Shown here in pieces: positions 21,394 through 35,197 of a stretch of DNA of 64,000 bases. The DNA is taken from positions 44,864-108,863 of the forward strand of contig SLTG01000001.1 in the NCBI GenBank assembly GCA_007130045.1. Reading direction: 5' to 3'. This stretch comes from Opitutales bacterium (GTDB taxonomy: Bacteria > Verrucomicrobiota > Verrucomicrobiia > Opitutales > T3Sed10-336). A program made the translations under genes and the position numbers. Below the pieces are notes generated by a model. It had not been told where the DNA came from and did no database searches. It saw only the letters and a list, made by a program, of their open reading frames with translations. Every line of letters begins with the position of its first letter. Position 1 is the stretch's first letter.

Positions 21394-21526
21394 AAAAGAC
21401 TCGAGAAAATATCTGACCGTTCTTTCGTGCACCATCCACTGTTATGCCGCATAATGATTCCCTTTTATTTCGAATGTGTTAATCTGTAATCCGGTCATTC
21501 GATCCAACCATCCAATCTATTCGATT

Positions 21527-23437
21527 ATGAGTAATCAGCCCTTGACGATCAGAGATAATCTTGAAAGCGAGTATTCCGATATTTACACACCGCAAGCTCT
21601 GGAAGCATTGAACGTCCTCTCGCACCTCAATCCGGAGGTGAAGGAACTGATGGCCAAACGGATCAGGCGCAGAGAACAGCGACGCATAGACAAAACGCGA
21701 ATCGATTTTCTGAACCCGTCATCAACGATTCCCGGAACGGACATCATGGTAGAGGACGCGCGTCTGGGCCGTTTCGAAGGAGCACGAGTCCCGGACGATC
21801 TGCAGCGTCAGTGGATTCAGGGGACGGGACCCGCGGCGAAGCCGAACTCATTGGTGCGAAACAGCATTAGAAATGTCGCTTACGCACTGCTTTCCGGTGC
21901 GGACGGGTGGATGTTTGATGGTGAGGATGCCCTTGGGCAGACGAAGGCCATGTCTCTGGACAACCAGCGAAACTTGAAGTTGGCGATCGGCCGGGATCCA
22001 CTTTTCCTGAAAGTGGCTGAAGAGGTCGCTGAGGGGATCAACCGATGGTCGGAGGTGTTTTTTGAGAAAAGGATTGTTCCCAACTGGAAAGATCAGATCG
22101 ACGCGACGACCATTATCTTTCGAGCGAGAGGCCTTCACTTGGATGACCGGCATTTGCGCGATGCAAACGGGGTGGCAATGGCCGCTTCAATAACGGATAT
22201 GACGCTATATGTGGTCAACAATTACAGGGAGCTTTCCAAACAGGATGCCTCTATTGTATTGTATATTCCCAAAATCCAGACAGCGGAGGAGGCGGCGCTC
22301 TGGAATCGGATGTTATCGGTTCTGGAGAAACACCTTGGTCTTGAGATCGGTACGATCAAGGCCTATGTACTTGTCGAACAGCTCGAAGCTACGTATCAAA
22401 TAATGGAGATAAGGGCTGCGTTGGGAAAGCATTTTGTTGGTTTCAATACCGGCCGTTGGGACTACATCAACAGCGTGGCCGATGCAATGGCCTGGGACGA
22501 ATCCTTTATACAGCCAAAGATCGAAGAGATTACGATGACATATGGTTATATGCGAAACTATGAAGATCGTGTCCGGAGGGCTGTCAATACGCCGGATATC
22601 AATGGCAACTGTACCTTGTGGCAGGGTGGAATGGAGCCCAATATTCCCGTTGGTTCCGACGAAGGGGTGGAGGCCGGCATGAAGAAGGCCGTTGCCGGAG
22701 CCGAGCGGGAGCAACGTGCCGGAGCCAGCGGCAAATGGGTGGCACACTGGAAGATGGTTCATATTGTACGCCCCGTCTGGGAGAAGGTTGGAGAGGATAA
22801 TCAGATGGGACGTCGGTTTCCGGCCCTCGGTTATTCGAAGGAGGATGCCGATGGCCTTGTACTTCTGGAACCGGCGGAAACCTCTGTTCGTGGAGCCAGG
22901 AATCTGTTGAGTGTGGCGATTCAGTACGGAAATGCCTTTGGACAGGGCCTTCAGGCGGCGGCCCTCAAGCCTGCCGACTTCTTTGGAAACGAAGATGTCC
23001 TCTATTTGATGGAGGATATGGCTACAGGTGAAATCCGGTTGAGTATTCTATGGGAATGGGTGCACAAGGGAGCAAAACTCACCACCGATGATCCGGAATC
23101 CGGAACAAGGAAAGGAGGTCTGTTCAGCCGTGAGCTTTTTGAAAAGCTCTTGGCGGAGGAGTATGAAAAGCTTATCAATGCGGATGACCGGGATGTTTAC
23201 GATGAATCCAAGAGAACCACGCTGCCCATTGCCCGGGAGATTGTCTGCAGCTATGTCCTCAACCGGACCAAATTGCCCTGGTTTATCGATCTGTTGAATC
23301 TCAACCTGAATAACGAGGATCTGGATTTAGCCAGAGAGCGGATTAACAAATACATCGATGCCTTTAACAAAGACGGGACCCGAATTACTGAAAACCTTGA
23401 TTTCCCCGCTCCCTCAAGGCAACCGCCTGGTTCATGA
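21527..23437 (+). CDS. Malate synthase (A-type-like, extended)
   Basis: ORF 21476..23437, with an ATG at 21527. 'MFDGEDALGQ' (compare ADFEDS), 'RARGLHLDDRH' (compare RPRGWHL) and 'GFNTGRWDYINS' (compare GLNCGRWDYIFS). Two hand-counted 100-nt samples give 48% and 43% GC. Confidence 0.8.
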   Translation: MSNQPLTIRDNLESEYSDIYTPQALEALNVLSHLNPEVKELMAKRIRRREQRRIDKTRIDFLNPSSTIPGTDIMVEDARLGRFEGARVPDDLQRQWIQGTGPAAKPNSLVRNSIRNVAYALLSGADGWMFDGEDALGQTKAMSLDNQRNLKLAIGRDPLFLKVAEEVAEGINRWSEVFFEKRIVPNWKDQIDATTIIFRARGLHLDDRHLRDANGVAMAASITDMTLYVVNNYRELSKQDASIVLYIPKIQTAEEAALWNRMLSVLEKHLGLEIGTIKAYVLVEQLEATYQIMEIRAALGKHFVGFNTGRWDYINSVADAMAWDESFIQPKIEEITMTYGYMRNYEDRVRRAVNTPDINGNCTLWQGGMEPNIPVGSDEGVEAGMKKAVAGAEREQRAGASGKWVAHWKMVHIVRPVWEKVGEDNQMGRRFPALGYSKEDADGLVLLEPAETSVRGARNLLSVAIQYGNAFGQGLQAAALKPADFFGNEDVLYLMEDMATGEIRLSILWEWVHKGAKLTTDDPESGTRKGGLFSRELFEKLLAEEYEKLINADDRDVYDESKRTTLPIAREIVCSYVLNRTKLPWFIDLLNLNLNNEDLDLARERINKYIDAFNKDGTRITENLDFPAPSRQPPGS

Positions 23438-23874
23438 TCGTGCCGGCCAATCATTTAGACGGGTTCATTTATGAGTCCGGAGGATTCCGCCTTCATTGAT
23501 GAACTGAATTGGTCTATGGACCGTGATGCTTTCAGCGTCGAATTGCGAAATCTGTTGCCGCTTGATGGTCATCGCATTCCACGAAGACGAAGACGGAATC
23601 ACCGCCGAGGCACGGAGCCCTGACGATTAACCCGACTTCGCAGGCAAGCGGACCGGGATACTGCTATTGTCGTTTATCTTCGGTACCGGCGTCGGCTGGC
23701 TGATTCCATCTCGGTTGGCGTTGTTGTGGGTTGCGCCCGTTGTCGGGAAAGAATGCCTTCGTTTCGGCCTGCTGTGCGCCTCTTTTCTGACAGTCGCACT
23801 GGCAATCTACGGCTCAGCCGCGTGAAACGCGTTTGAATCGTCGCGCAGGTCAGGTCCGCCCGATACCTGCGGCA

Positions 23875-26835
23875 TCACGGCAGCGTGACCTGAACGCTCC
23901 CGAAAGCGCGGGCGGCGGACGGGTCGAGCGGGATTCGCACGACGACCCGCTTCCAGTCAGCGCTGATCGCGGTGACTTCCGTTTGCCCGTTCGCCGGGTG
24001 CCAGGTGGCGAGATCGGTCGAGTACCGGGGCGTGTAGATCAGGCCGGTGTCCCGTCGCCGCACGAACTCGATCACCAGCGCCGGTTCCGGACCGTCCTCG
24101 AACGCAACGGCCGGAAGACCGGCGTTCCCGCCCGCGCCGCGTACCAGTCTCCGGTGGTCGGCTTCCGACAAATCCATGTTGAAGGCGTATTTGAGAAGGT
24201 TGTACACGCCTTCGCCAAACGGGTCGGCGTCGGGCTCGGCAAGACCGCCGCTCAGCCCCGCCTCGTCCATCGCCGCGTCGAAACGCAGGCGTTCCTTCAG
24301 GTTAAAGACGGCCACGATGTCCGTATCCGAATCGAGCACCACGGCCACCAATGCCGCCGTCCTCTCGATGTCGCCCGCCCAGCGCGCAAAAACCGAGTCC
24401 TCTCCGGCAACGGCCTCGATTTGAAGTTCGGCGCCCGTTTCGAGTTGGCCGATAATAGGAAATTCCGAAATGGTCTGGCCGCCGATCACAATCGAACCAT
24501 GCCCGTCGCCAACAGTATCGATAAAATACATACGGTGACCGGGCGATCGGAAGAATTCGATCGGTGTGGGAACGAGACGATCCTCCGTATCCCCGTGGCC
24601 GAGCCGGCCGGAAAGGTTGGCGCCGAATGTGAACACGGTGCCGTCCTCTGAGAGCAATACCGTGTGGTTCGCGCCCGCAGCGATCTCAACGATCGTGTGC
24701 CCGGAAAGGTGTTCATGTTCGATCAAAACGGGAACGAGGCGATTTTCCCTATCTCCGTGCCCGAGTTGCCCCAGAATATTTCGTCCGAACGTAAATACGG
24801 TTCCGTCTTCCGACAGAAGCACGGAGTGTTCGCCTCCCGCCGAAATCCTTCTGATGTTATGATTCACCAGGTTCTCATGGTCGATCAAGGCCGGTAACAC
24901 ACGGACCTCCGTCCCGCCATGTCCGAGCCGACCGTATGCGCCGCTTCCGAATGCAAAAGCCTTCCCTCCCAACGAGCGCAATATTGTATGGATTCCTCCT
25001 GCTGAGATATCTGCAATGGCCTGTCCCGAAACGTCCCCTGCGGCGACCCGTACGGGCACCAGGCTGTTGGGCATATTCTCGCGCCCCAACTGCCCGAACT
25101 GGTTATCGCCAAAGCCAAATACTGTCCCGTTTCCGGAAAGGAGGAGCGAGTGCGCTCCTCCGGGAGACCGGCCGATCTGCCCACCCGTTCCGGCCGCGAC
25201 GCTCCGGATAGTGAATCCCGACAGGCTGGCGTGCTCGATCCTGGTCGGTGTGTCCCTGGAACTTTGATTTCCGTGCCCGAGCTGCCCACCCCGTCCGGAC
25301 CCAAACGTGAAAGCCGTACCATCCGAAGCGGTCAGAATGGTTTGGGACATCCCGGCGGCCGCTCCGGTAATTATGTAGCCGTCCAGCCCTTGATACTCGA
25401 TCGGCGTCGGAACGAAGCGATTCTGGTTATCCCCGTGCCCCAACTGTCCCGAGGACCCACTTCCAAATGTAAGAACCGTTCCGTCAGCGGAAAGCAGTAC
25501 GGTGTGCCGTAATCCGGCCGCGACGTCGATTATGGTGTGGCCGGACAGATTTTCGTGTTCGATGGGAATCGGCACCCAGCGGTCCACTTGGTCGCCGTGA
25601 CCGAGCTGGCCCCACAGCCCCCGGCCGAACGTGTACACCGTGCCGTCCGCCGAAAGGAGAACAGTATGCTGCCCACCGGCGGCGAGCTTCGGTTCAACCA
25701 TTCCGGGAACCACCGAGATCGTAAAAGCCTCTTCGTATGTAATGTAAACCGAGGCGGAGGATACGGCCGCCAGCCGGATGGAGTACTCGCCGGGTTCGAG
25801 AGGACCGGTGGTTCGCAGTTCATTACCGGAAACCGAGAAGTTCGTGTTGTTGTCGTCACCGGCACCCGAAGCCAGGGCAAAATGCAGCGTTTCGTCATCG
25901 GCGGCATCCACGTGGAGCGGGCTCACAGCCATCCCGTCGCCCGTACGCTCCGTCCCGATCGATTGGCGCCAGAGCACGATCCGCCGTGACCCGAACACTG
26001 CCCCGATTTCCAGGTCCTCGTCCAACGTCACAACCGCCAGGGGTTCGGTCCCACTCGCATCGAAGACCCAGCGGTCGAAAAACGATCCCTCTTCCGCCAT
26101 CGCCTCGAGGTGATATTCGGCGCCGGTTTCCGCCTGCATAAGAATCGGAAAACTGGATACAGGTTCGCCGTTTACCAGAACGGTTCCTCCTCCGTCGCCG
26201 AGGCGCTCAATGCGAAGCATGCGGTTTCCCGGCCTCCTGAAAGTCTCTATGGGCGTCGGCACGAAGCGGAACACGGTGTCCCCGTGGCCGAGCTGCCCGA
26301 GCGCGCCCCGGCCAAACGTAAACACCGTGCCGTCCTCGGACCAGAGAACCGAATGGTCGCCTCCGGCAGCGATGCCGACGATCATGTGCCCGGTCAGGTT
26401 CTCGTGCTCGATCGCCACCGGCACACTGCGGGATTGGGTGTCATCATCCCCCAGCCAACTGTCCCCGAACGAAAACACCGTTCCCTTCGACGAGAGGAGG
26501 AGCGTGCGATAGGTGACCGCCGCGACCCGAATGATGGTGTGGCCTGCAATATTCCCGTGCTCGATCGGCGTCGGCTCCATACGGTCGATCTGATCACCGT
26601 GTCCCAATGCTCCACCCCATCCCCCGCCAAACGTAAACACGGTCCCGTCGGCGGAAAGAAGCACCGTGTGCCGAGCCCCGGCAGCCACATCCACGATGGT
26701 GTGTTCGGAGAGAAGCGGATGCTCGATCGCCACCGGAATCGATCGGTCGTCGGTATCCCCGTGTCCCAGTTGGCCGAAACGACCCGCGCCAAATGTGAAC
26801 ACTTCACCGTCGGGCGAGAGATAGACCGTGGCGTT
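23875..26835 (-). CDS. Giant RCC1-repeat surface protein, C-terminal segment (continues ORF 26394..29945 after a 1-nt frame change; the ORF track starts it at GTG 26802)
   Basis: 11 RCC1 blades ('DGTVFTFG.G..GQLGHGD'), two B-repeat-like domains ('LVNGEPVSSFP..FDRW..AVF'), one cadherin-like domain ('HFALASGAGDDNNTNFSVSGNELRT') and a C-terminal 'GVYNLLKYAFNMD...STDLATW' domain. The frame stays open upstream of 26802 to 26835 and encodes 'NATVYLSPDGE'. Confidence 0.85.
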   Translation of the reverse strand, partial: NATVYLSPDGEVFTFGAGRFGQLGHGDTDDRSIPVAIEHPLLSEHTIVDVAAGARHTVLLSADGTVFTFGGGWGGALGHGDQIDRMEPTPIEHGNIAGHTIIRVAAVTYRTLLLSSKGTVFSFGDSWLGDDDTQSRSVPVAIEHENLTGHMIVGIAAGGDHSVLWSEDGTVFTFGRGALGQLGHGDTVFRFVPTPIETFRRPGNRMLRIERLGDGGGTVLVNGEPVSSFPILMQAETGAEYHLEAMAEEGSFFDRWVFDASGTEPLAVVTLDEDLEIGAVFGSRRIVLWRQSIGTERTGDGMAVSPLHVDAADDETLHFALASGAGDDNNTNFSVSGNELRTTGPLEPGEYSIRLAAVSSASVYITYEEAFTISVVPGMVEPKLAAGGQHTVLLSADGTVYTFGRGLWGQLGHGDQVDRWVPIPIEHENLSGHTIIDVAAGLRHTVLLSADGTVLTFGSGSSGQLGHGDNQNRFVPTPIEYQGLDGYIITGAAAGMSQTILTASDGTAFTFGSGRGGQLGHGNQSSRDTPTRIEHASLSGFTIRSVAAGTGGQIGRSPGGAHSLLLSGNGTVFGFGDNQFGQLGRENMPNSLVPVRVAAGDVSGQAIADISAGGIHTILRSLGGKAFAFGSGAYGRLGHGGTEVRVLPALIDHENLVNHNIRRISAGGEHSVLLSEDGTVFTFGRNILGQLGHGDRENRLVPVLIEHEHLSGHTIVEIAAGANHTVLLSEDGTVFTFGANLSGRLGHGDTEDRLVPTPIEFFRSPGHRMYFIDTVGDGHGSIVIGGQTISEFPIIGQLETGAELQIEAVAGEDSVFARWAGDIERTAALVAVVLDSDTDIVAVFNLKERLRFDAAMDEAGLSGGLAEPDADPFGEGVYNLLKYAFNMDLSEADHRRLVRGAGGNAGLPAVAFEDGPEPALVIEFVRRRDTGLIYTPRYSTDLATWHPANGQTEVTAISADWKRVVVRIPLDPSAARAFGSVQVTLP

Positions 26836-29828
26836 CCGCCAACGGCAATCTTTGACTCGACCGCAACGACGCGAATCGTGAACGCCCTTTCAATGATCAG
26901 GCCATTCCCGCCGGTGGCGCGCAGCCGGATCGAATACTCGCCTGTCTGAAGCTCGTCGCCGAGGAGGAGTTCGTTGCCATCGATCGTGAAACGCCCATTG
27001 TCTTCGTCTCCCTCGCCGGACACCAAAGCGAAGGTGAACGTTTCCCCCGGTGGCGCCACGGCGTGAAGACGACTGACCAATGCGCCGGGGACAGCCCGTT
27101 CGGCGGCAATCGACTGGTTCCAAATCACTATTTTCCGCAATTTGAAGATGGCCGTCACATCTTTGTGATCGTCGAGAACCAGGCTCTGTGAAAACTCCGT
27201 GCCGCTCAGGTCCCCCGCCCAGTGATCAAAAAAGGAGTCTTCTTCCGAAATCGCCTCCAGCGCGAGTTCTTCGTCGCCTTCGCCCAGGAAGTAGTAGGGA
27301 AATTCGAGAACCGGTTCGCCGTTTACAAGCAATTGCCCCGATCCGGTGCCCGCAGCGTCCAGGCGAAGCACCCTCTTGCCAAGGAGATTCAGAAGCTCGA
27401 TTCGTGCAGGCCGGAGCCTGTCTTCCTTGTCGCCCAGTCCCAGTTGGCCGCCGTCGCCCCGGCCGAAGGTGAAGACCGTGCCGCCCGATGAAACGAGCAC
27501 CGTATGAGAACCGCCCGTTGCCAGACCGGTGACTGCATGTCCGAACACATCTTCTTGCGCGATTGGAGTCGGCACCAGGCGGTTGTCGGTATCCCCGTGT
27601 CCCAAACGCCCGTTGGCCCCCCACCCAAACGTCAATACGGTGCCGTCCTGCGTAAGCACCGCGGTAAAGGCGCCGCCTGCTGCGATTGAATCGATCGTGT
27701 GCCCCAATAGGCTTGCGGTGGGAACCTGGGTTGGCACAAACCGTGTGGCGGTATCGCCGTGTCCGAGTTGACCGCTTCCTCCGGCGCCAAAGGTAAACAC
27801 GGCGCCCTGCGACGAAAGCAACACCGTGTGAGATCCCGCGGCGACGGCAGCGACGATGAGGTGCCCGGCCAGGTGCTCATGCTGGATGGGAGTGGGCTCA
27901 AGCCGGTTCTCTGTGTCTCCGTGCCCCAGCCTCCCGCTTACGCCGGAACCGAAGGTGAATACCGTGCCGTCCGCGGAGAGCAGGACCGTAAAACTCGCTC
28001 CGGCCGCCACATCGATAATCCTGTGGCCGATGAGCGAATCGTGCTCGACAGGTGCCGGAAGTGTCAGGTCCTGCGTGTTCCCGTGACCGAGTCGGCCGAA
28101 CCCGCCCGAACCGACGGTGTACACGGTGCCGTCCGATCCGAGAAGAACCGTGTGCGAATTGCCGCCCGCCACTTTCGGCGCGACGTTTTCGGAAACGACC
28201 GAAACCACGAATGCGGTCTCGACAGTCCGGCCACCCTGGCTCGTCGCGCGCAAGCGAACGGAGTACGTGCCTTTCGTAAGCGAATCGGTTGTTTGCAGTT
28301 CGTTGCCTTCGACAGCAAACAGCGCGTTGTCCGCGTCGCCTTCGCCGGAAACAAGCCCGAACGTGAACGGATCGTCTTCGGCGCCGGCAGCGTGGAGCAG
28401 TCCGACAACGGCGCCCTCTCCAGTCTGCTCCGCCCCGATCGTATCGTGCCAGAGTACGAACGCGCTTTCCCCGAAGACCGCCTTGACGGTTTTGTCCGCG
28501 TCGGCGATCAACGTACGGGTTCCGCCGGTCCCGCTCAATTCGCCTAGCCAGCGGTCGAAATACGCCCCCGGTTCCGGCACGGCTTCGACCGGCAACTGCG
28601 CATCGGTCTCAAATTGTGTCATAAACGGAAACTCCGAAACTTCCTCGCCTCCGACGAGAAGCGTCCCCTGTCCGCCCCCCGCCGTCTCGAACCGCACCAT
28701 TCTATGCCCGGCCAACCGGAAGAACCCGATCGGCGCAGGCACGAGCCGGTGCTCCGTGTCGAAATGGCCGAGCTGCCCGAGGATTCCCATCCCAAAGGTC
28801 AGCACCGAGCCCTCCGCGGTAAGAACGGCAGTATGGGCGCCGCCCGCAGCCACCTCGACAATCGTCTGTCCGGAAAGACTCTCGTGCCCGATCTGAACCG
28901 GAACGGTCCGGCCCTCCATGTCCCCTTGGCCGAGGCGCCCGAGGTTCCCCGCCCCGAACGTGAATACGGCATCCGCTCCGTACAGAACCGTGTGTGCCGA
29001 TCCCGTGGTAATCCGGGATATTGCGTGTCCGCCGAATACTTCGGAGTCGATCGGGGACGGATCGAGTCGGGCCGAGGTATCCCCATGTCCCAATTGCCCT
29101 TCATTGCCGCGACCGAAAGTCAGGACGGTTCCGTCCGCGGCGAGTAGAACGCTGAACCGGGTTCCGGCCGCAACCTCGACGATCGATTTACCGGAAAGGC
29201 TTTCGTGCTCGATTGGGACGGGTGTCGACCGGTCCACGGTGTCTCCGTGGCCGAGCGCGCCCTCGCGTCCCTGTCCGAACGACAACACAGCACCGTCCGA
29301 CAAATACAGCAGGGTGTGGGATCCTCCCGCGGCGATGCCGGCGATCGTATGTCCGGTCAGGTCTTCGTGCTCGATCGCAACCGGAACGTTGCGGTTCCCC
29401 GTGTCGCCGTGCCCGAGCCTTCCGTGCGATCCCAGACCGAAAGTGAAAACGGTGCCGTCCGACGAGAGCAGGACCGTGTGCGCCCCGCCTGCGGCAATAC
29501 CGGTAATCGTGTGACCTGAAAGGTTTCCGTGGACGATCTTCGTGGGAACGTGCCGGTTGGCGGTGTCGCCGTGTCCGAGTCGGCCGTCGACGCCCGAACC
29601 GAAGGTGAAAACCGTTCCGTCATTGGAAAGGAGCACGGTGTGGTGGTCGCCCGCGGCCACATCGACGATAGTGTGCCCCGAAAGGGCTTGATGTTCGATC
29701 GCAACCGGGATTGTCCGGGACTCGGTGTCCCCGTGTCCGAGCTGTCCCCGGGTCCCGCGTCCGAAGGTAAACACGGCGCCGTCCGAAGACAGCAGAACGG
29801 TATGGAAGATCCCGGCGGAGACCTTTGC
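24295..29828 (-). repeat. Intragenic repeat region: 23 RCC1 blades of about 50 codons in four super-modules
   Basis: Recurrent coding repeat '..HTVLLS.DGTVFTFG.G..G.LGHGD...R..P..IEH..L.GH.I..VAAG'. The blades are arranged 7+5+4+7. Super-module boundaries fall near 28182/28181, 26859/26858 and 25705/25704. Confidence 0.85.
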
Positions 29829-29945
29829 CTCCGGGATTCCGAAGTCCGTAACGGGAGCGGCTCGCTCCGATGCGGCGCGAACCGCAGTGTATGATAGCGC
29901 AATTATGCCGAAGACGGCAAGCAGGCGGAGGGTTTGGGATTTCAT
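26394..29945 (-). CDS. Giant RCC1-repeat surface protein, N-terminal segment (meaningful coding 26835..29945; 26394..26834 is an out-of-frame tail)
   Basis: Signal peptide 'MKSQTLRLLAVFGIIALSYTAVRAA'. 12 RCC1 blades in two super-modules, each followed by a B-repeat-like and a cadherin-like domain ('FGLVSGEGDADNALFAVEGNEL', 'FALVSGEGDEDNGRFTIDGNEL'). After 'ESKIAVGG' the translation becomes Arg/Ser/Trp-rich nonsense. Confidence 0.85.
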   Translation of the reverse strand: MKSQTLRLLAVFGIIALSYTAVRAASERAAPVTDFGIPEAKVSAGIFHTVLLSSDGAVFTFGRGTRGQLGHGDTESRTIPVAIEHQALSGHTIVDVAAGDHHTVLLSNDGTVFTFGSGVDGRLGHGDTANRHVPTKIVHGNLSGHTITGIAAGGAHTVLLSSDGTVFTFGLGSHGRLGHGDTGNRNVPVAIEHEDLTGHTIAGIAAGGSHTLLYLSDGAVLSFGQGREGALGHGDTVDRSTPVPIEHESLSGKSIVEVAAGTRFSVLLAADGTVLTFGRGNEGQLGHGDTSARLDPSPIDSEVFGGHAISRITTGSAHTVLYGADAVFTFGAGNLGRLGQGDMEGRTVPVQIGHESLSGQTIVEVAAGGAHTAVLTAEGSVLTFGMGILGQLGHFDTEHRLVPAPIGFFRLAGHRMVRFETAGGGQGTLLVGGEEVSEFPFMTQFETDAQLPVEAVPEPGAYFDRWLGELSGTGGTRTLIADADKTVKAVFGESAFVLWHDTIGAEQTGEGAVVGLLHAAGAEDDPFTFGLVSGEGDADNALFAVEGNELQTTDSLTKGTYSVRLRATSQGGRTVETAFVVSVVSENVAPKVAGGNSHTVLLGSDGTVYTVGSGGFGRLGHGNTQDLTLPAPVEHDSLIGHRIIDVAAGASFTVLLSADGTVFTFGSGVSGRLGHGDTENRLEPTPIQHEHLAGHLIVAAVAAGSHTVLLSSQGAVFTFGAGGSGQLGHGDTATRFVPTQVPTASLLGHTIDSIAAGGAFTAVLTQDGTVLTFGWGANGRLGHGDTDNRLVPTPIAQEDVFGHAVTGLATGGSHTVLVSSGGTVFTFGRGDGGQLGLGDKEDRLRPARIELLNLLGKRVLRLDAAGTGSGQLLVNGEPVLEFPYYFLGEGDEELALEAISEEDSFFDHWAGDLSGTEFSQSLVLDDHKDVTAIFKLRKIVIWNQSIAAERAVPGALVSRLHAVAPPGETFTFALVSGEGDEDNGRFTIDGNELLLGDELQTGEYSIRLRATGGNGLIIERAFTIRVVAVESKIAVGGTPRSISRPTVKCSHLARVVSANWDTGIPTTDRFRWRSSIRFSPNTPSWMWLPGLGTRCFFPPTGPCLRLAGDGVEHWDTVIRSTVWSRRRSSTGILQATPSFGSRRSPIARSSSRRRERCFRSGTVGWGMMTPNPAVCRWRSSTRT

Positions 29946-30293
29946 GGGTTTGAGGCAGGATTGACTGTTGGTTTCCCGGAGAACGATCGCCCCGAAGGAG
30001 GTTTGGGTTACACTGGCATGGGTACCGTTGACTAATACATCAAAAGTTTACCTGGTTCTTTCGCCCAAGTCAACGAACCGTTGGATATATCCCGGCGTCG
30101 TGAGCGCCTGGTTCGATCCCGAACTCTTCGAAATTGAGCCATCCGACGCCGAACCGGAAGCGCTGAATCTCACCCGGGAGAACCTCGCACTTCTGCCAAG
30201 CGGTGTCACATCGATCCGCGGAACGTAGTGTGCCTGCTTGCAAGTGCTTCCTGCATATGCCACTAAGGAACCCGACGCGCCGGGAAGAATCAC

Positions 30294-31307
30294 GTGGAGG
30301 CACAATCCAGAGTTTCAATGGGGTCGCCGGTCCCATTCGAATACCGGAACGGGACATTTCTCCCGGAAGTGGGATTGTGGCTCGATCCGCGGCGGAAGTC
30401 GCCGCTCGCCTTTATTTCCCATGCCCACGCCGATCACGCCGGCCGTCACGATCGCGTGATCGCCTCTCCCGAAACGCTCGCGCTCATGGCGGCGCGCGGG
30501 GTCAGGCAGCGCGATTCGATTCCCATGGCCTATGGCGAGGAGAGCGAACTCAACGGCGGCCGCATCGAGCTCTTTCCCGCAGGGCACGTTTTGGGCTCGG
30601 CGCAAATCCGCATCACCACCGACTCCGGCAGCCTGGTGTACACGGGCGATTTCAAGCTTCGTCCCAACCGTTCCTGCGAAATCGCGGAAATCCGTCAGGC
30701 CGACGTGCTCATCATGGAAACCACCTTTGGCCTCGCCCGCTACCGTTTTCCGCCACTTGAAGAGACTGTCGGCGAAATCGTCGCTTTTTCCCGCGAGAGC
30801 CTGGAGGAAGGAGCGGTCCCGGTATTCCTGGTTTACTCGCTCGGCAAAGCCCAGGAAGTCCTCTCGATCCTCGGCGATGCCGGGTTCGAGGTCCTTGTAC
30901 ATGAGTCCATCAATCGAGTTACCCGGGTGTACCGGGAATTCGACCGTCCGCTTCCCCAGTGCGCGTGCCTGGACGAAGGGCGAGCCGAGGGCAAGGTGGT
31001 TCTGTTTCCGCCGTCCGCCCGGCGCCCGAAAGCGATCGCAGGCTCCGCACCGGTTCGAACCGCTGCGGTCACGGGCTGGGGGTTGGATCCCTCGGCGCGC
31101 TATCGGTACGGGTGCGACGCGGTCTTTCCGTTGTCGGATCACGCGGACTACGACGACTTGTTCCGATATGTGGAACGGGTCAATCCGCAGGTGGTGTACA
31201 CACTGCACGGCTACGCCGAAGAATTCGCCCGCGACCTGCGGACACGGGGCGTCGAAGCCTGGTCGCTCATTTCCGAAAACCAGATGGAGTTGCCGCTTGA
31301 CCTGTAA
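30294..31307 (+). CDS. Metallo-beta-lactamase/beta-CASP-like nuclease (ligase-associated DNA-damage-response exonuclease family-like)
   Basis: 'FISHAHADHAG' (HxHxDH), 'GHVLGSA', 'YTGDFK', 'METTFG' and C-terminal 'LSDHADYDDL...TLHG'. Alternative ATG at 30318. Confidence 0.7.
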   Translation: MEAQSRVSMGSPVPFEYRNGTFLPEVGLWLDPRRKSPLAFISHAHADHAGRHDRVIASPETLALMAARGVRQRDSIPMAYGEESELNGGRIELFPAGHVLGSAQIRITTDSGSLVYTGDFKLRPNRSCEIAEIRQADVLIMETTFGLARYRFPPLEETVGEIVAFSRESLEEGAVPVFLVYSLGKAQEVLSILGDAGFEVLVHESINRVTRVYREFDRPLPQCACLDEGRAEGKVVLFPPSARRPKAIAGSAPVRTAAVTGWGLDPSARYRYGCDAVFPLSDHADYDDLFRYVERVNPQVVYTLHGYAEEFARDLRTRGVEAWSLISENQMELPLDL

Positions 31308-31545
31308 ACAGTCCGGAGACCTTAACCCCGAATTAACCCAACCCGGCGGGACCGGCACCAAGAACGATCGGGCGAGGCAGCTCGCGCTTACCAGTCTCGG
31401 CCACAGCCGTATGCAGAGGCAAGACCAACGAAAAAGCAGGCCGCCGGCTGGCGACCTGCCTCTCACCCATAAACAAGGCTTCGTACAAGCCCGAATCAAT
31501 CACCGTGCTTGATCCGGAAATCTGGAATCCGACGGGCAATCAACC

Positions 31546-32004
31546 TCATGCGCCGCCGGCGCCACGTTGGCGGCGTTCACCGCCGCCGGCACTACGTTGC
31601 TCCCGAAGTTCTTCCCCGCGGGCGGGTCGTTGGCGACGTTCAACGGCACCGGCGCCACGTTGTTCCCGAAGCTCTTCCAGATGGGCGGTCCAGGCTTCCA
31701 ACTGTTCTTCGGTAAGGGCCTTCTCGATGACTTCGTTCATGGATTCTCGGAGTGCGACCATCGCTTCACGGCGCGACTCGCGATCCTGTGCGGCCTCCAA
31801 ACCCTCCTGGAGTTCGGTAAGGGCCGCTTCGAGGTACTCCTGCTGCGGTTCGCTGAGTTGAAGCACCTCGTTCATCCGCTCGAGTTGTCTTTCGGCGAAG
31901 TTGCCGCCGCCGCGTTGCTGAGGGCCGCGTTCCGCCTGCGCCATGACCATCGGAGTAAAGCCGGCCAAACCAAGGGCTAACAAAAGGACGAAAATCTTTT
32001 TCAT
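31546..32004 (-). CDS. Periplasmic Spy/CpxP-family (LTXXQ-motif) protein
   Basis: ORF 31546..32064; the ATG at 32004 gives signal peptide 'MKKIFVLLLALGLAGFTPMVMAQA'. Helical, with 'LSEPQQ' and 'LTEEQLEAW' motifs. The Arg/Gly-rich C-terminus carries a short internal repeat. Confidence 0.6.
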   Translation of the reverse strand: MKKIFVLLLALGLAGFTPMVMAQAERGPQQRGGGNFAERQLERMNEVLQLSEPQQEYLEAALTELQEGLEAAQDRESRREAMVALRESMNEVIEKALTEEQLEAWTAHLEELREQRGAGAVERRQRPARGEELREQRSAGGGERRQRGAGGA

Positions 32005-32301
32005 AACGTAATCTACAGTTTGTGAATTGATGGTTGTTGTTCGCGAACGGACCAACCGGTCCATTCCTAACAGGTTAAACCCCGCGCAGTTTTAATAGTT
32101 GCATATCATGTCTCATATTCAGGTCTCTTTCAATGACCCGAAAACGGGCCGCGGAACGTGCCGAACCTCCGTTCGCCACACCGGACTCACGAAGGCTCAG
32201 ATTCATAAATATAATGTTTTCCCCTATTATTAGTTAGGTATTTGACTTATTGTGAATCGGGCGCGTCGATGCTACCGTGGAAGCTCATCCAATAAAAAAA
32301 T

Positions 32302-33096
32302 ATGGAAAACAACATCCCTCAAGGGGGGCTGCATGCCCCGGTGCAAGAAATTTCAACCCGCAAGGCCCCCATCGTTTTCCGCCGTAAACGGGGTCGGTGG
32401 CACGAGGCATCCCTGACCCGCTGGTTTCGTTTCACCCTGGAGGAAGCCCGCGAGGTCGCGCGAACCCGTTCACGAACCGCGCCCAAGGCAACGGTCGCAG
32501 CGGCAGTGCCGACCCGAGCGACTCAGGAGGTCGCCGACGGACCGAAACCCGCGGCCCGCGAAATCGGCGCCGCTTCGGTCTCCGACATCCTCGGACACGA
32601 CAACCGACCCGCCTCCACGGCGGCCAAGCCGAAAAACGATGGCGTTCCCAGAAAGTTTCTCCGTTATTTCAAGCTCCTGCTCGACCTGCGCGAACACGTG
32701 GCAGCCGAACTCGAGCTCCATACCAGGGACACGCTCAAACACTCCAGCAGGGAAGACGCCGGAGACCTTTCGGGCTACAGCCTGCACACGGCCGATTCCG
32801 CAACGGATTCGTTCGACCGCGATTTTGCCCTGAGTCTGGTTTCGACGGAACAGGAAGCCCTCGCCGAGATCGATTCCGCCATCAGGCGCATCCACGACGG
32901 CACTTACGGGGTCTGTGAAGTCACCGGACGGCCCATCGAAAAAGAACGGCTTCTCGCGGTCCCGTTTACCCGCTTTTCATTCGAGGGACAAATGAACCAT
33001 GAGAGGCATCCCAAGATGCACGTCCGCCGCGAAGGCGCGTTCCTGGATTCCTCCTACGAAAACCGTGCTTCCCCGACAGGCGGATTTGAGGAATAA
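32302..33096 (+). CDS. DksA/TraR-family protein with a long N-terminal extension and a degenerate zinc finger
   Basis: C-terminal half 'DSATDSFDRDFALSLVSTEQEALAEIDSAIRRIHDGTYGVCEVTGRPIEKERLLAVPFTRFSFEGQ' follows the DksA coiled-coil plus finger pattern. Only 1 of the 4 Cys is retained. Confidence 0.65.
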   Translation: MENNIPQGGLHAPVQEISTRKAPIVFRRKRGRWHEASLTRWFRFTLEEAREVARTRSRTAPKATVAAAVPTRATQEVADGPKPAAREIGAASVSDILGHDNRPASTAAKPKNDGVPRKFLRYFKLLLDLREHVAAELELHTRDTLKHSSREDAGDLSGYSLHTADSATDSFDRDFALSLVSTEQEALAEIDSAIRRIHDGTYGVCEVTGRPIEKERLLAVPFTRFSFEGQMNHERHPKMHVRREGAFLDSSYENRASPTGGFEE

Positions 33097-33305
33097 CCCG
33101 GCCTGATCAAGTACGCGGAAATGACGGCTTGGAAAATAGCTCTCTAGCGGAGGCGTCGTGGAGTTCAGTGGTGTCGGCTCGCCGCGTCCGACGATGACAA
33201 AAGTCGATAAGCGGGTTATATTCAGAAACCAAAGCGGGTGCCAACCCGTCGGAATCTGAAACGCCGATTCCGGTTGTTCCGGATGGGAAAACCGCCACTC
33301 TATCT

Positions 33306-34259
33306 ATGCATCGTTTCCTTGCCAAACCATTGGACTGGCTCGTCATACGCGCAGCGACCGCATTCCTTCCGCGAAACCGGATCGATACCGAGCGCGACCC
33401 GGAGCTTGAGAAGTTCATGGAAGACCCCTTGCGTTTTCTTCTCGGGGATCCCGGTTCCCCTGAGCTCAACTTCTCCACTCCCCGCAATTTCACCTTCAGG
33501 TCCCCCGTTCGGACCCCGTGGCCGGAAAACAATACCGTCTCCGGAAAACTTTACCGGTGTGTAAACGAGTCGGAAAGGAATCCCACAGTAATCCTTCTGC
33601 ACGGATGGAACGACAATCTCGGCTACACGTTGCGCCTCCCCTTATACGCCCGCCTCCTCAATCGATCCGGGCTGAATGCGGTGATCCCGAGACTTCCCTA
33701 TCACGGCCCACGCCGACCGCAAACCCGCGGAGCGATGCGCGACTTCATTTCAAGCGATCCGGCCCGGATGCTCGAAGCGACGCGACAAGCGGTCCTGGAA
33801 ATCCGCGCGCTAACCACGTGGCTCCTGGATCACAAAGCCGGACCCGTCGGACTCTCGGGAACCTCTCTGGGCGGATGGCTCGGAGGGCTCGCGCTCTGCT
33901 CCGATCTTCGCCTGCGTTTCGGCGTGCTGATTACGCCGATTGTCAGCATCGAACAGGCGATTCGCGACCTGCCGTTCTGCGAACCCGTTCGGAGGGCGCT
34001 CCAGGAACATCCGGTTCGCCTGAACCGGATGAACCTCGATGCACATCACCCGAAACCGCCGCCCGAACGCCTCCTGCTAATCGGAGCCCGGCACGACCTT
34101 TTTCTCCCGCCCGAAAAGCTCGAGAGCCTGGCCGCCGCCTGGGGAAACCCGCACCTCTGGCATTTCGATCACGGACACATCAGCGTTGCTTTTTCCGTCC
34201 GGCTTGCCCGAAAAATGGCTGAATGGATTCACCGGACCCTTGCCGGTGACCGGGAATAA
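33306..34259 (+). CDS. Alpha/beta-fold hydrolase
   Basis: 'VILLHGWND', nucleophile elbow 'GTSLGGW', and C-terminal 'FDHGH'. Confidence 0.65.
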   Translation: MHRFLAKPLDWLVIRAATAFLPRNRIDTERDPELEKFMEDPLRFLLGDPGSPELNFSTPRNFTFRSPVRTPWPENNTVSGKLYRCVNESERNPTVILLHGWNDNLGYTLRLPLYARLLNRSGLNAVIPRLPYHGPRRPQTRGAMRDFISSDPARMLEATRQAVLEIRALTTWLLDHKAGPVGLSGTSLGGWLGGLALCSDLRLRFGVLITPIVSIEQAIRDLPFCEPVRRALQEHPVRLNRMNLDAHHPKPPPERLLLIGARHDLFLPPEKLESLAAAWGNPHLWHFDHGHISVAFSVRLARKMAEWIHRTLAGDRE

Positions 34260-34429
34260 CGGTGATCCCTGTTATGGTCTTCTATCCCCAACAACGTTTC
34301 CCGCAATCCTCCTCCGTGCCTCCGAACGCTCAAGGGGTCTTCTCCTTTCCGTCCGACAAAGCCCTTCAACGTCCCCCCGCACCGCTTCGAAAGCAGCGGG
34401 AACGTCGACGCGGGCCGCTCAGTGAGGAA

Positions 34430-35197
34430 TCACGGCGAGACCTCCGGGCCCACGTTTTTCAGCTTAGCCTTTGTGCGATTGAAAATTTCGGCGGGAGAAC
34501 CGTCGGCTTCGACTGTTACCAGCAGATCCCGCTTGGAGTAATACTCGATCAGCGGGCGGGTATTCGCTTCGTAAGCGTCCATTCGCACCCGAACGGACTC
34601 CGGAACGTCGTCCTCCCGCTGGTACAGCGATTCTCCACAGTGATCACATACACCCTCGACCTTTGGGGGTTGCGCGGTGACGTGGAAAACGGCTTTGCAG
34701 CCCGGACAAGTACGACGCCCGCTTAATCGCGCCACCACCTGATCGATCGGCAGCTCGTAGTTCAGCACCGCCGTCAGGGCACATTCCTTCTCTTCCAGGA
34801 ATTCCGAAAGCGCTTCAGCCTGCGCAACCGTACGCGGAAAGCCGTCCAACATGAACCCCCCGCCGCACATCAGACATCGCATCCGTTCGTGAATCAGCTC
34901 CAAAACGATCTCGTCCGGCACCAAATCGCCTCGCAACATGTAATTCAGGGCGCGCGTCATCGTCGGAGAGGCGGTTCCCTTCTCCTGAAGATCCTTCGCC
35001 GCCCTGAAGACGTCGCCGGTGGAAAGATGGCAGACACCATAGTACTCGCTGATTCGCTCTGCCTGGGTGCCCTTTCCGACACCAGGAGCACCGAGCAGCA
35101 CAAACCTCAACGGATTTGCCCGAGTTACTTTCGGCAGAATGCTGCAGGGTACCCTGCCTCCTGTAATCCAGCTTGCCCGGTCGTTTTTTGTCTTCAT
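34430..35197 (-). CDS. adk: Adenylate kinase (zinc-lid type)
   Basis: 'FVLLGAPGVGKGTQAERI', 'LSTGD', and lid 'CPGCKAVFHV...CDHCGESL'. The in-frame TTG at 35110 would give the canonical 'MRFVLLGAPG' N-terminus and is probably the true start. Confidence 0.92.
   Translation of the reverse strand: MKTKNDRASWITGGRVPCSILPKVTRANPLRFVLLGAPGVGKGTQAERISEYYGVCHLSTGDVFRAAKDLQEKGTASPTMTRALNYMLRGDLVPDEIVLELIHERMRCLMCGGGFMLDGFPRTVAQAEALSEFLEEKECALTAVLNYELPIDQVVARLSGRRTCPGCKAVFHVTAQPPKVEGVCDHCGESLYQREDDVPESVRVRMDAYEANTRPLIEYYSKRDLLVTVEADGSPAEIFNRTKAKLKNVGPEVSP

Follow-up and report, generated by a model that had tools for sequence, protein, structure and literature searches.

A single-base frameshift divides a large modular RCC1, B-repeat and cadherin-fold gene in an Opitutales bacterium

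Introduction

Bacterial RLD extracellular proteins ('alpha-tubulin suppressor-like RCC1 family protein') are very large, carry a signal peptide and propellers of tandem blades, and are probably extracellular. Giant proteins consisting of RCC1 repeats only have been described from Oscillospiraceae (bioRxiv 10.1101/2023.11.21.568195). Here we analyse a gene of this kind in a stretch of 64,000 nucleotides from an Opitutales bacterium (GenBank assembly GCA_007130045.1, contig SLTG01000001.1, positions 44,864 to 108,863), which is called the window below and whose own numbering is used throughout; the whole gene and all its features lie on the minus strand. From the sequence of the window, two overlapping reading frames had previously been interpreted as one gene for a modular surface protein that is interrupted by a frameshift (the original prediction). 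The product shares the propellers, the size, the signal peptide and the probable extracellular location with the RLD proteins. In contrast to them, it alternates its propellers with B-repeats (Flg_new_2) and cadherin-fold domains and ends in a Verrucomicrobiota-specific C-terminal domain, and two of its propellers are cut to five and four blades. It is a new member of the known bacterial class of extracellular RCC1-repeat proteins, with a rare modular arrangement.

With respect to the lesion itself, the closest comparison is with ordinary bacterial frameshift pseudogenes. These show the same features as the locus studied here, namely the loss of a single base, the absence of recoding signals, a shortened product and, if the event is recent, an intact downstream reading frame, and we found no essential difference. 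As an event the frameshift is ordinary; it is the architecture in which it occurred that is rare.

Results and discussion

The upstream half of the gene is an open reading frame (ORF) of 1183 aa with an ATG start (26394..29945), the downstream half one of 975 aa with a GTG start (23875..26802). Their overlap, given as about 400 nt in the original prediction, measures 409 nt. Re-translation agreed with the predicted point at which the frame changes. The upstream frame is coherent up to RVVAVESKIAVGG (...ESKIAVGG) at codon 1037, the last base of which is nt 26835, and continues beyond it as Arg/Ser/Trp-rich text to a stop at 26394; this out-of-frame tail (26394..26834) adds 146 codons and a stop to the upstream product. 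In the -1 frame, the sequence reads on from 26835 as NATVYLSPDGEVFTFGAGRFGQLGHGD and stays open for 987 codons to the stop at 23875. The -1 frame is closed on its upstream side by a TGA at 26890-26892, which confines the shift to about 55 nt. At the frameshift site (26829..26841) the coding strand is GTT GGC GGA ACG CCA CGG, and the frames meet at 26835 if one base is restored in GGC GGA/AC GCC.

The sole close relatives of the gene product are P0001 (2,380 aa, 43% identity) and P0004 (1,274 aa, 46% identity), both encoded in the same Opitutia metagenome-assembled genome (MAG), GCA_050506795.1, at loci that are not syntenic with the one in the window. They have the same module grammar, a positionally equivalent junction and the same C-terminal domain (57% and 48% identity, respectively), but unlike the window gene they are intact, have seven blades per propeller and carry an extra cadherin-fold domain at the N-terminus. 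With one base restored, the junction of the window gene aligns without gaps to eight other junctions between a cadherin-like domain and an RCC1 propeller (two from this gene, four from P0001 and two from P0004), and P0001 reads straight across the equivalent position as DARVALGGRHSAVIDADGGFFTFGSG. This gap-free alignment, together with the read-through in P0001 and its identical module order and C-terminal domain, confirms that the two ORFs are the halves of one ancestral gene, separated by a single-base frameshift as originally predicted. After restoration of one base at 26835, the whole ancestral gene (23875..29945) comprises 2,023 codons plus the stop.

The original prediction had left undecided whether the shift is real or an error of the assembly. 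The 1,183-aa frameshifted product is recorded, nonsense tail included, on eight contigs. Among the contigs of MAGs at NCBI, SLCD01000063 and SKOE01000313 match the window over 13.5 kb without a single difference, and PWLC01000156 carries the same shift and differs from the window by four single-nucleotide polymorphisms (SNPs) in 13.5 kb. PWLC is Opitutae bacterium CSSed10_219R1 from a MAG set published in 2018 (supplementary tables, PMC6146748), while SKOE and SLCD are the Opitutales bacteria CSSed162cmA_317 and CSSed162cmB_489 from a study of 2019 (supplementary tables, PMC6704655). We read the sample codes in these names as sediment of Cock Soda Lake, collected in 2010 for PWLC and in 2016 for SKOE and SLCD (top 2 cm, replicates A and B). 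Furthermore, independently assembled Logan contigs from the runs SRR490128 and SRR7083929 hold the identical 71-nt junction. The allele with two As is thus shared by five assemblies, three MAGs and two from Logan, which were produced by different pipelines from runs of 2010-2016. An exact look-up of the 2,023-aa protein with the Asn restored found no entry in a collection of 15 billion proteins, a scan of JGI metagenome contigs with an exact pattern permitting either allele gave no match, and a protein-seeded scan for a close ortholog returned just generic RCC1 relatives of at most 46% identity.

Since the same allele occurs in five assemblies, one of them a strain variant with four SNPs, and since the site is no homopolymer and long exact repeats are absent from the gene, the deletion is, as far as can be judged from these contigs, a genuine allele that persists in the population. 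This answers the question of the original prediction in favour of a real shift. What is notable about the lesion is that samples taken six years apart record it in one and the same natural population.

We consider it likely that a genuine one-base deletion broke a single Opitutales gene and left it as a young pseudogene or in truncated form. Before this event, its product would have been a Sec-exported, multivalent extracellular binding (adhesin-like) protein of about 2,023 aa, with a C-terminal domain that is typical of secreted Verrucomicrobiota proteins and would have acted in export or surface attachment. From the only start that bears a signal peptide, the present allele would yield 1,037 native residues, comprising super-modules 1 and 2, followed by the 146-residue nonsense tail and lacking the C-terminal domain. 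The 987 downstream codons would be silent or give a mislocalised cytoplasmic fragment; it is their lack of a signal peptide and of a convincing start that leads to the assignment as pseudogene or truncated gene. As predicted, the downstream half has no signal peptide of its own: in a hydropathy check, the N-termini of the downstream ORF calls were not signal-peptide-like, whereas the upstream N-terminus was strongly so.

A number of observations weigh against this interpretation. The 987 downstream codons are still free of stops, and the sole SNP within them is synonymous (GAG to GAA on the coding strand, Glu1844). Both fit a recent inactivation, but would also agree with a 3' half that is still under selection, and one SNP is too few to measure selection. 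The evidence consists of assembled contigs, beneath which a minority intact allele or low-level frameshifting could exist; the assemblies all stem from a single lake and, probably, a single sequencing technology. Finally, that a word-indexed protein search returned no near-identical intact allele is weak evidence, because this search missed even the 100%-identical cluster of the downstream ORF in its top list, and its negatives count for little.

Among the alternatives, an artefact of sequencing or assembly would mean that the organism has an intact gene of 2,023 codons, from which the sequence has wrongly dropped an A. The most frequent type of consensus error in MAGs is the single-base indel, and the data are assembly-level and come from related samples of one lake; nevertheless, the recurrence of the allele across pipelines, years and a strain variant, at the non-homopolymeric site GGAAC and in a gene without long exact repeats, makes this explanation quite unlikely. 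A functional split, in which both halves are expressed as useful proteins and the second is translated from an internal start (such as GTG at 26802 or the ATG at 26418 that gene callers chose), we regard as unlikely. It is favoured by the intact downstream ORF with its single synonymous SNP and by gene callers, which annotate a downstream protein of 847-975 aa. Against it, both starts are located in propeller 3, either at a blade or within one, and lead to the N-termini without signal-peptide character mentioned above, no promoter-like site was found near the junction, and the downstream protein is made up of extracellular-type domains and ends in a C-terminal domain that otherwise occurs on proteins with a signal peptide.

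Programmed -1 ribosomal frameshifting, or another form of recoding, would allow the cell to produce the full-length protein. The shift needed is indeed -1, the frame it leads to is open for 987 codons, and a small hairpin is present at the site, since the deleted base falls in the loop (3 nt) of the quasi-palindrome TGGCG-GAA-CGCCA, whose stem has 5 bp (with an A put back, the loop becomes GAAA). But between the bounding stops (26394-26892) we found no slippery heptamer of the type X XXY YYZ in the zero frame, no A/T run of five or more and no G/C run of six or more, the site itself being GGCGGAACGCC. The segment of 121 nt that surrounds and follows the site has a minimum free energy of -46.7 kcal/mol compared to a mean of -44.4 for shuffled sequences (z -0.66), and 55 of 200 shuffles fold as well. 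Moreover, the intact relatives need no frameshift. The hairpin is no recoding signal; it may be relevant to the origin of the deletion, as a mutational hotspot, or be a coincidence. Taken together, recoding is very improbable. The original prediction had also offered two fates for the gene if the shift is real, pseudogenisation or phase variation, of which the former is supported and the latter is not. A phase-variable contingency gene, switched OFF by slipped-strand mispairing, would agree with the fact that large surface proteins are often phase-variable and with the nature of the lesion, a single-base indel. However, the site consists of just two As and contains no simple-sequence tract, and all assemblies, which span six years, show the same OFF allele; an ON allele was not encountered. 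Phase variation therefore remains unsupported, and we hold it to be extremely improbable. A young pseudogene or truncated gene is the interpretation that we follow below.

If correct, it provides a clean example of a young frameshift pseudogene, observed in several samples, in a wild, uncultured soda-lake Opitutales population; the value of this example is local. It also carries a warning for annotation. The deposited 'RCC1 proteins' of 1,183 aa and 847-975 aa would be artefactual halves, the first of them with 146 residues of nonsense at its end. The database entries of the halves (P0002, P0123, P0271 and P0272) comprise 1,183 aa for the upstream and 847, 849 and 975 aa for the downstream part, the latter with differing, arbitrary starts.

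The architecture of the joined 2,023-aa product agrees with the original prediction in every item. A signal peptide is followed by three super-modules, each consisting of an RCC1 propeller, a B-repeat and a cadherin-fold domain, and then by a fourth propeller, a fourth B-repeat and the C-terminal domain with its STDLATW motif. The N-terminus MKSQTLRLLAVFGIIALSYTAVRA/AS (29874..29945) shows the n/h/c layout of a Sec signal peptide, with a basic n-region, a hydrophobic core (10-aa mean Kyte-Doolittle hydropathy 3.06) and a VRA-A c-region; this call was made by sequence inspection and a hydropathy check without a dedicated predictor. A Pfam scan of the joined protein bore out the RCC1 and B-repeat-like labels: it matched WD40_RLD PF25390 (E 1e-268, 890.7 bits, cutoff 150), RCC1 PF00415 (E 1e-260, 842.7 bits, cutoff 21.7), RCC1_2 PF13540 (E 5e-125) and Flg_new_2 PF18998, the divergent InlB B-repeat (E 2.7e-11, 43.7 bits, gathering cutoff 23.6). 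The matches to PF00415 form 23 stretches, the number of blades predicted. From the signal peptide and these domain types, we infer that the joined product was a surface protein or adhesin.

Super-module 1 consists of propeller 1 (28725..29834, aa 38-407), B-repeat-like domain 1 (28464..28724) and cadherin-fold domain 1 (28179..28460). In super-module 2, propeller 2 (27396..28178) is followed by B-repeat-like domain 2 (27135..27395) and cadherin-fold domain 2 (26856..27131). Propeller 3, which spans the frameshift, lies at 26245..26855, with B-repeat-like domain 3 at 25984..26244 and cadherin-fold domain 3 at 25693..25980, and the last super-module comprises propeller 4 (24556..25692) and B-repeat-like domain 4 (24304..24555). 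When tested singly, the four B-repeat-like segments matched PF18998 with E-values of 7e-4 to 0.15 (6.7e-4 for copy 1) and 12.5-20 bits, each of them under the cutoff of 23.6. For copy 4, AlphaFold2 predicted an all-beta structure with a predicted local distance difference test (pLDDT) score of about 85-90.

Motif counting and module lengths gave 7, 5, 4 and 7 blades for propellers 1-4, which comprise 370, 261, 204 and 379 aa. Units 1 and 4 thus have the full seven blades, while units 2 and 3 are reduced to five and four, in line with the original prediction. The propellers of P0001 measure 371-375 aa; its last one has six blades by motif count, and the seventh is probably degenerate. Since the propellers of the relatives (about 370 aa) have seven blades, the units with five and four appear to have lost two and three complete blades, respectively, with in-register recombination between blades as the expected route; these losses would have occurred earlier than the frameshift. 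Such deletions of whole blades would illustrate how the repeat number of propellers drifts by in-register recombination.

Other explanations of the irregular propellers were tried and rejected. A collapse of repeats during assembly does not account for the short units, as the DNA copies of the blades within the gene are just 60-73% identical and contain no long exact repeats. Nor is the frameshift a by-product of blade deletion: by sequence inspection, blades 1-2 of propeller 3 match blades 1-2 of the third propeller of P0001, and the missing blades therefore lie further downstream. Propeller 3 also includes a degenerate blade, FSFGDSWLGDDD (26400-26560), which could be taken as a sign of decay. 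It aligns with an equally degenerate blade of P0001, FTFGRGGLGELGRSP (residues about 1400-1420, third propeller), and is probably an ancestral peculiarity of the third propeller.

The label 'cadherin-like' of the original prediction stood at the level of the fold and through an intermediate sequence, but not as a direct Pfam match. None of the three copies matched PF00028 (Pfam Cadherin), even at E<=10. A profile built from nine copies of the domain matched P0121 with an E-value of 1.3e-19 in a database of 5.8 billion sequences, and P0121 is in turn a member of Pfam Cadherin (PF00028 E 1.2e-13, 51.7 bits, cutoff 28.8). The AlphaFold2 model of copy 3 reached a pLDDT of 87.6, and in a Foldseek search of the PDB with this model, 20 of the 21 top matches were extracellular cadherin (EC) domains of cadherins and protocadherins, with template modelling (TM) scores of 0.54-0.69 and a probability of 1.0. 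At the sequence level, PDB entries gave no significant match to the profiles of the B-repeat, the cadherin-like or the C-terminal domain. The cadherin-like label is thus supported by the predicted fold and by P0121. In common with cadherin EC domains (PF00028) and bacterial cadherin-like repeats, the domains of the window gene have the predicted fold of EC1/EC2 structures, and they share the motif pattern G-E-G-D-x-D-N ... F-x-V-x-G-x-E-L ... Y-x-I-R-L-x-A. They differ in that they occur as single spacers between other modules rather than in tandem arrays, and in the lack of an evident inter-domain linker of the DxNDNxP type. Inspection of the nine-copy alignment revealed neither of the calcium-linker motifs LDRE and DxNDNxP, and the domains end in ...VVSENVAPK or ...VVPGMVEPK. 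The extra cadherin-fold domain that P0001 and P0004 (loci L004 and L006) possess, and the window gene does not, follows the signal peptide and precedes the first propeller.

The part of the protein with the wider potential is its C-terminal domain (23878..24303, 142 aa, PFGEGVYNLLKYAFNMD ... STDLATW ... VQVTLP-stop), which belongs to a large, phylum-restricted family without a Pfam or NCBIfam model. The last 142 residues matched neither Pfam nor NCBIfam, no Pfam or NCBIfam family matched more than one of 30 members of the domain family, and none of the known sorting-signal models in these databases (T9SS CTD, that is, the C-terminal domain of the type IX secretion system, PEP-CTERM, LPXTG and others) matched the domain in the window. 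A profile of the domain matched no solved structure among PDB sequences. A word-indexed protein search with the domain alone gave no match either, a result of the sensitivity of this tool, since a full HMMER scan of 1.84 billion cluster representatives (clusters at 50% identity) later returned 1,560 relatives at E<=1e-3, 729 of them at E<=1e-10. In 147 of the 150 best matches, no more than 12 residues separate the end of a domain copy from the C-terminus, and twenty proteins carry two or three copies, sometimes in tandem. In a scan of one genome per species we found 299 loci, often several per genome, and all named ones are from Verrucomicrobiota, including Opitutia, Akkermansiaceae, Luteolibacter, Prosthecobacter, Haloferula and others; in most cases the match finishes 0-3 codons short of the stop. 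The carrier proteins (loci L008-L086, proteins P0123-P0270) range from 110 to 3,232 aa and have diverse extracellular-type modules in their N-terminal parts (ASH/HYDIN Ig-like, DUF5122 propellers, MBG, FG-GAP, FecR). About 60% of the full-length carriers pass a crude heuristic for signal peptides. The family consensus, of 125-140 aa, is ...AGLSG..A.P.A.PFGDGV.NLLKYAFNM.L..PD.R.L..G.GTAGLP...LR.EFLRR..SGL.YTP..S.DL..W.P.TG...VT.ID..WERV.V..P.....R.FG.V.V.LP-stop. An AlphaFold2 model of B-repeat plus C-terminal domain from an alignment of three sequences reached a pLDDT of 30-55 in the C-terminal domain, which renders the Foldseek result meaningless.

In its distribution the domain resembles the T9SS CTD of Bacteroidota and PEP-CTERM, which are likewise strictly C-terminal, phylum-restricted, attached to many unrelated passengers and present in several copies per genome. 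In contrast to these, the Verrucomicrobiota domain, known here from sequences alone, shows no sequence relationship to Pfam or NCBIfam models, is longer (about 125-140 aa) and has neither a terminal transmembrane helix nor a basic tail. As it is strictly C-terminal, restricted to one phylum and found on diverse extracellular-type passengers, it might represent a previously undescribed export or surface-anchoring signal used throughout the Verrucomicrobiota, a functional analogue of the T9SS CTD; we put this forward tentatively, as a possibility that may well turn out otherwise. The frameshift would then uncouple two super-modules from this signal. More generally, such a domain would delimit the set of proteins that Verrucomicrobiota, including relatives of Akkermansia, secrete or display on their surface, and would point to an as yet undescribed machinery of export or attachment.

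A protein search gave 876 matches to RCC1-repeat proteins at E<=1e-30, many of them from Verrucomicrobiota. Among the matches inspected, the architecture of alternating super-modules was confined to the window gene, P0001 and P0004. The gene is preceded in its surroundings (21394-34945) by genes for an adenylate kinase, an ABHD18-like hydrolase, a zinc-finger protein of the DksA/TraR type and a Lactamase_B-like protein, none of these neighbours showing a functional link to the RCC1 gene; the downstream neighbour, for which the same holds, encodes a malate synthase.

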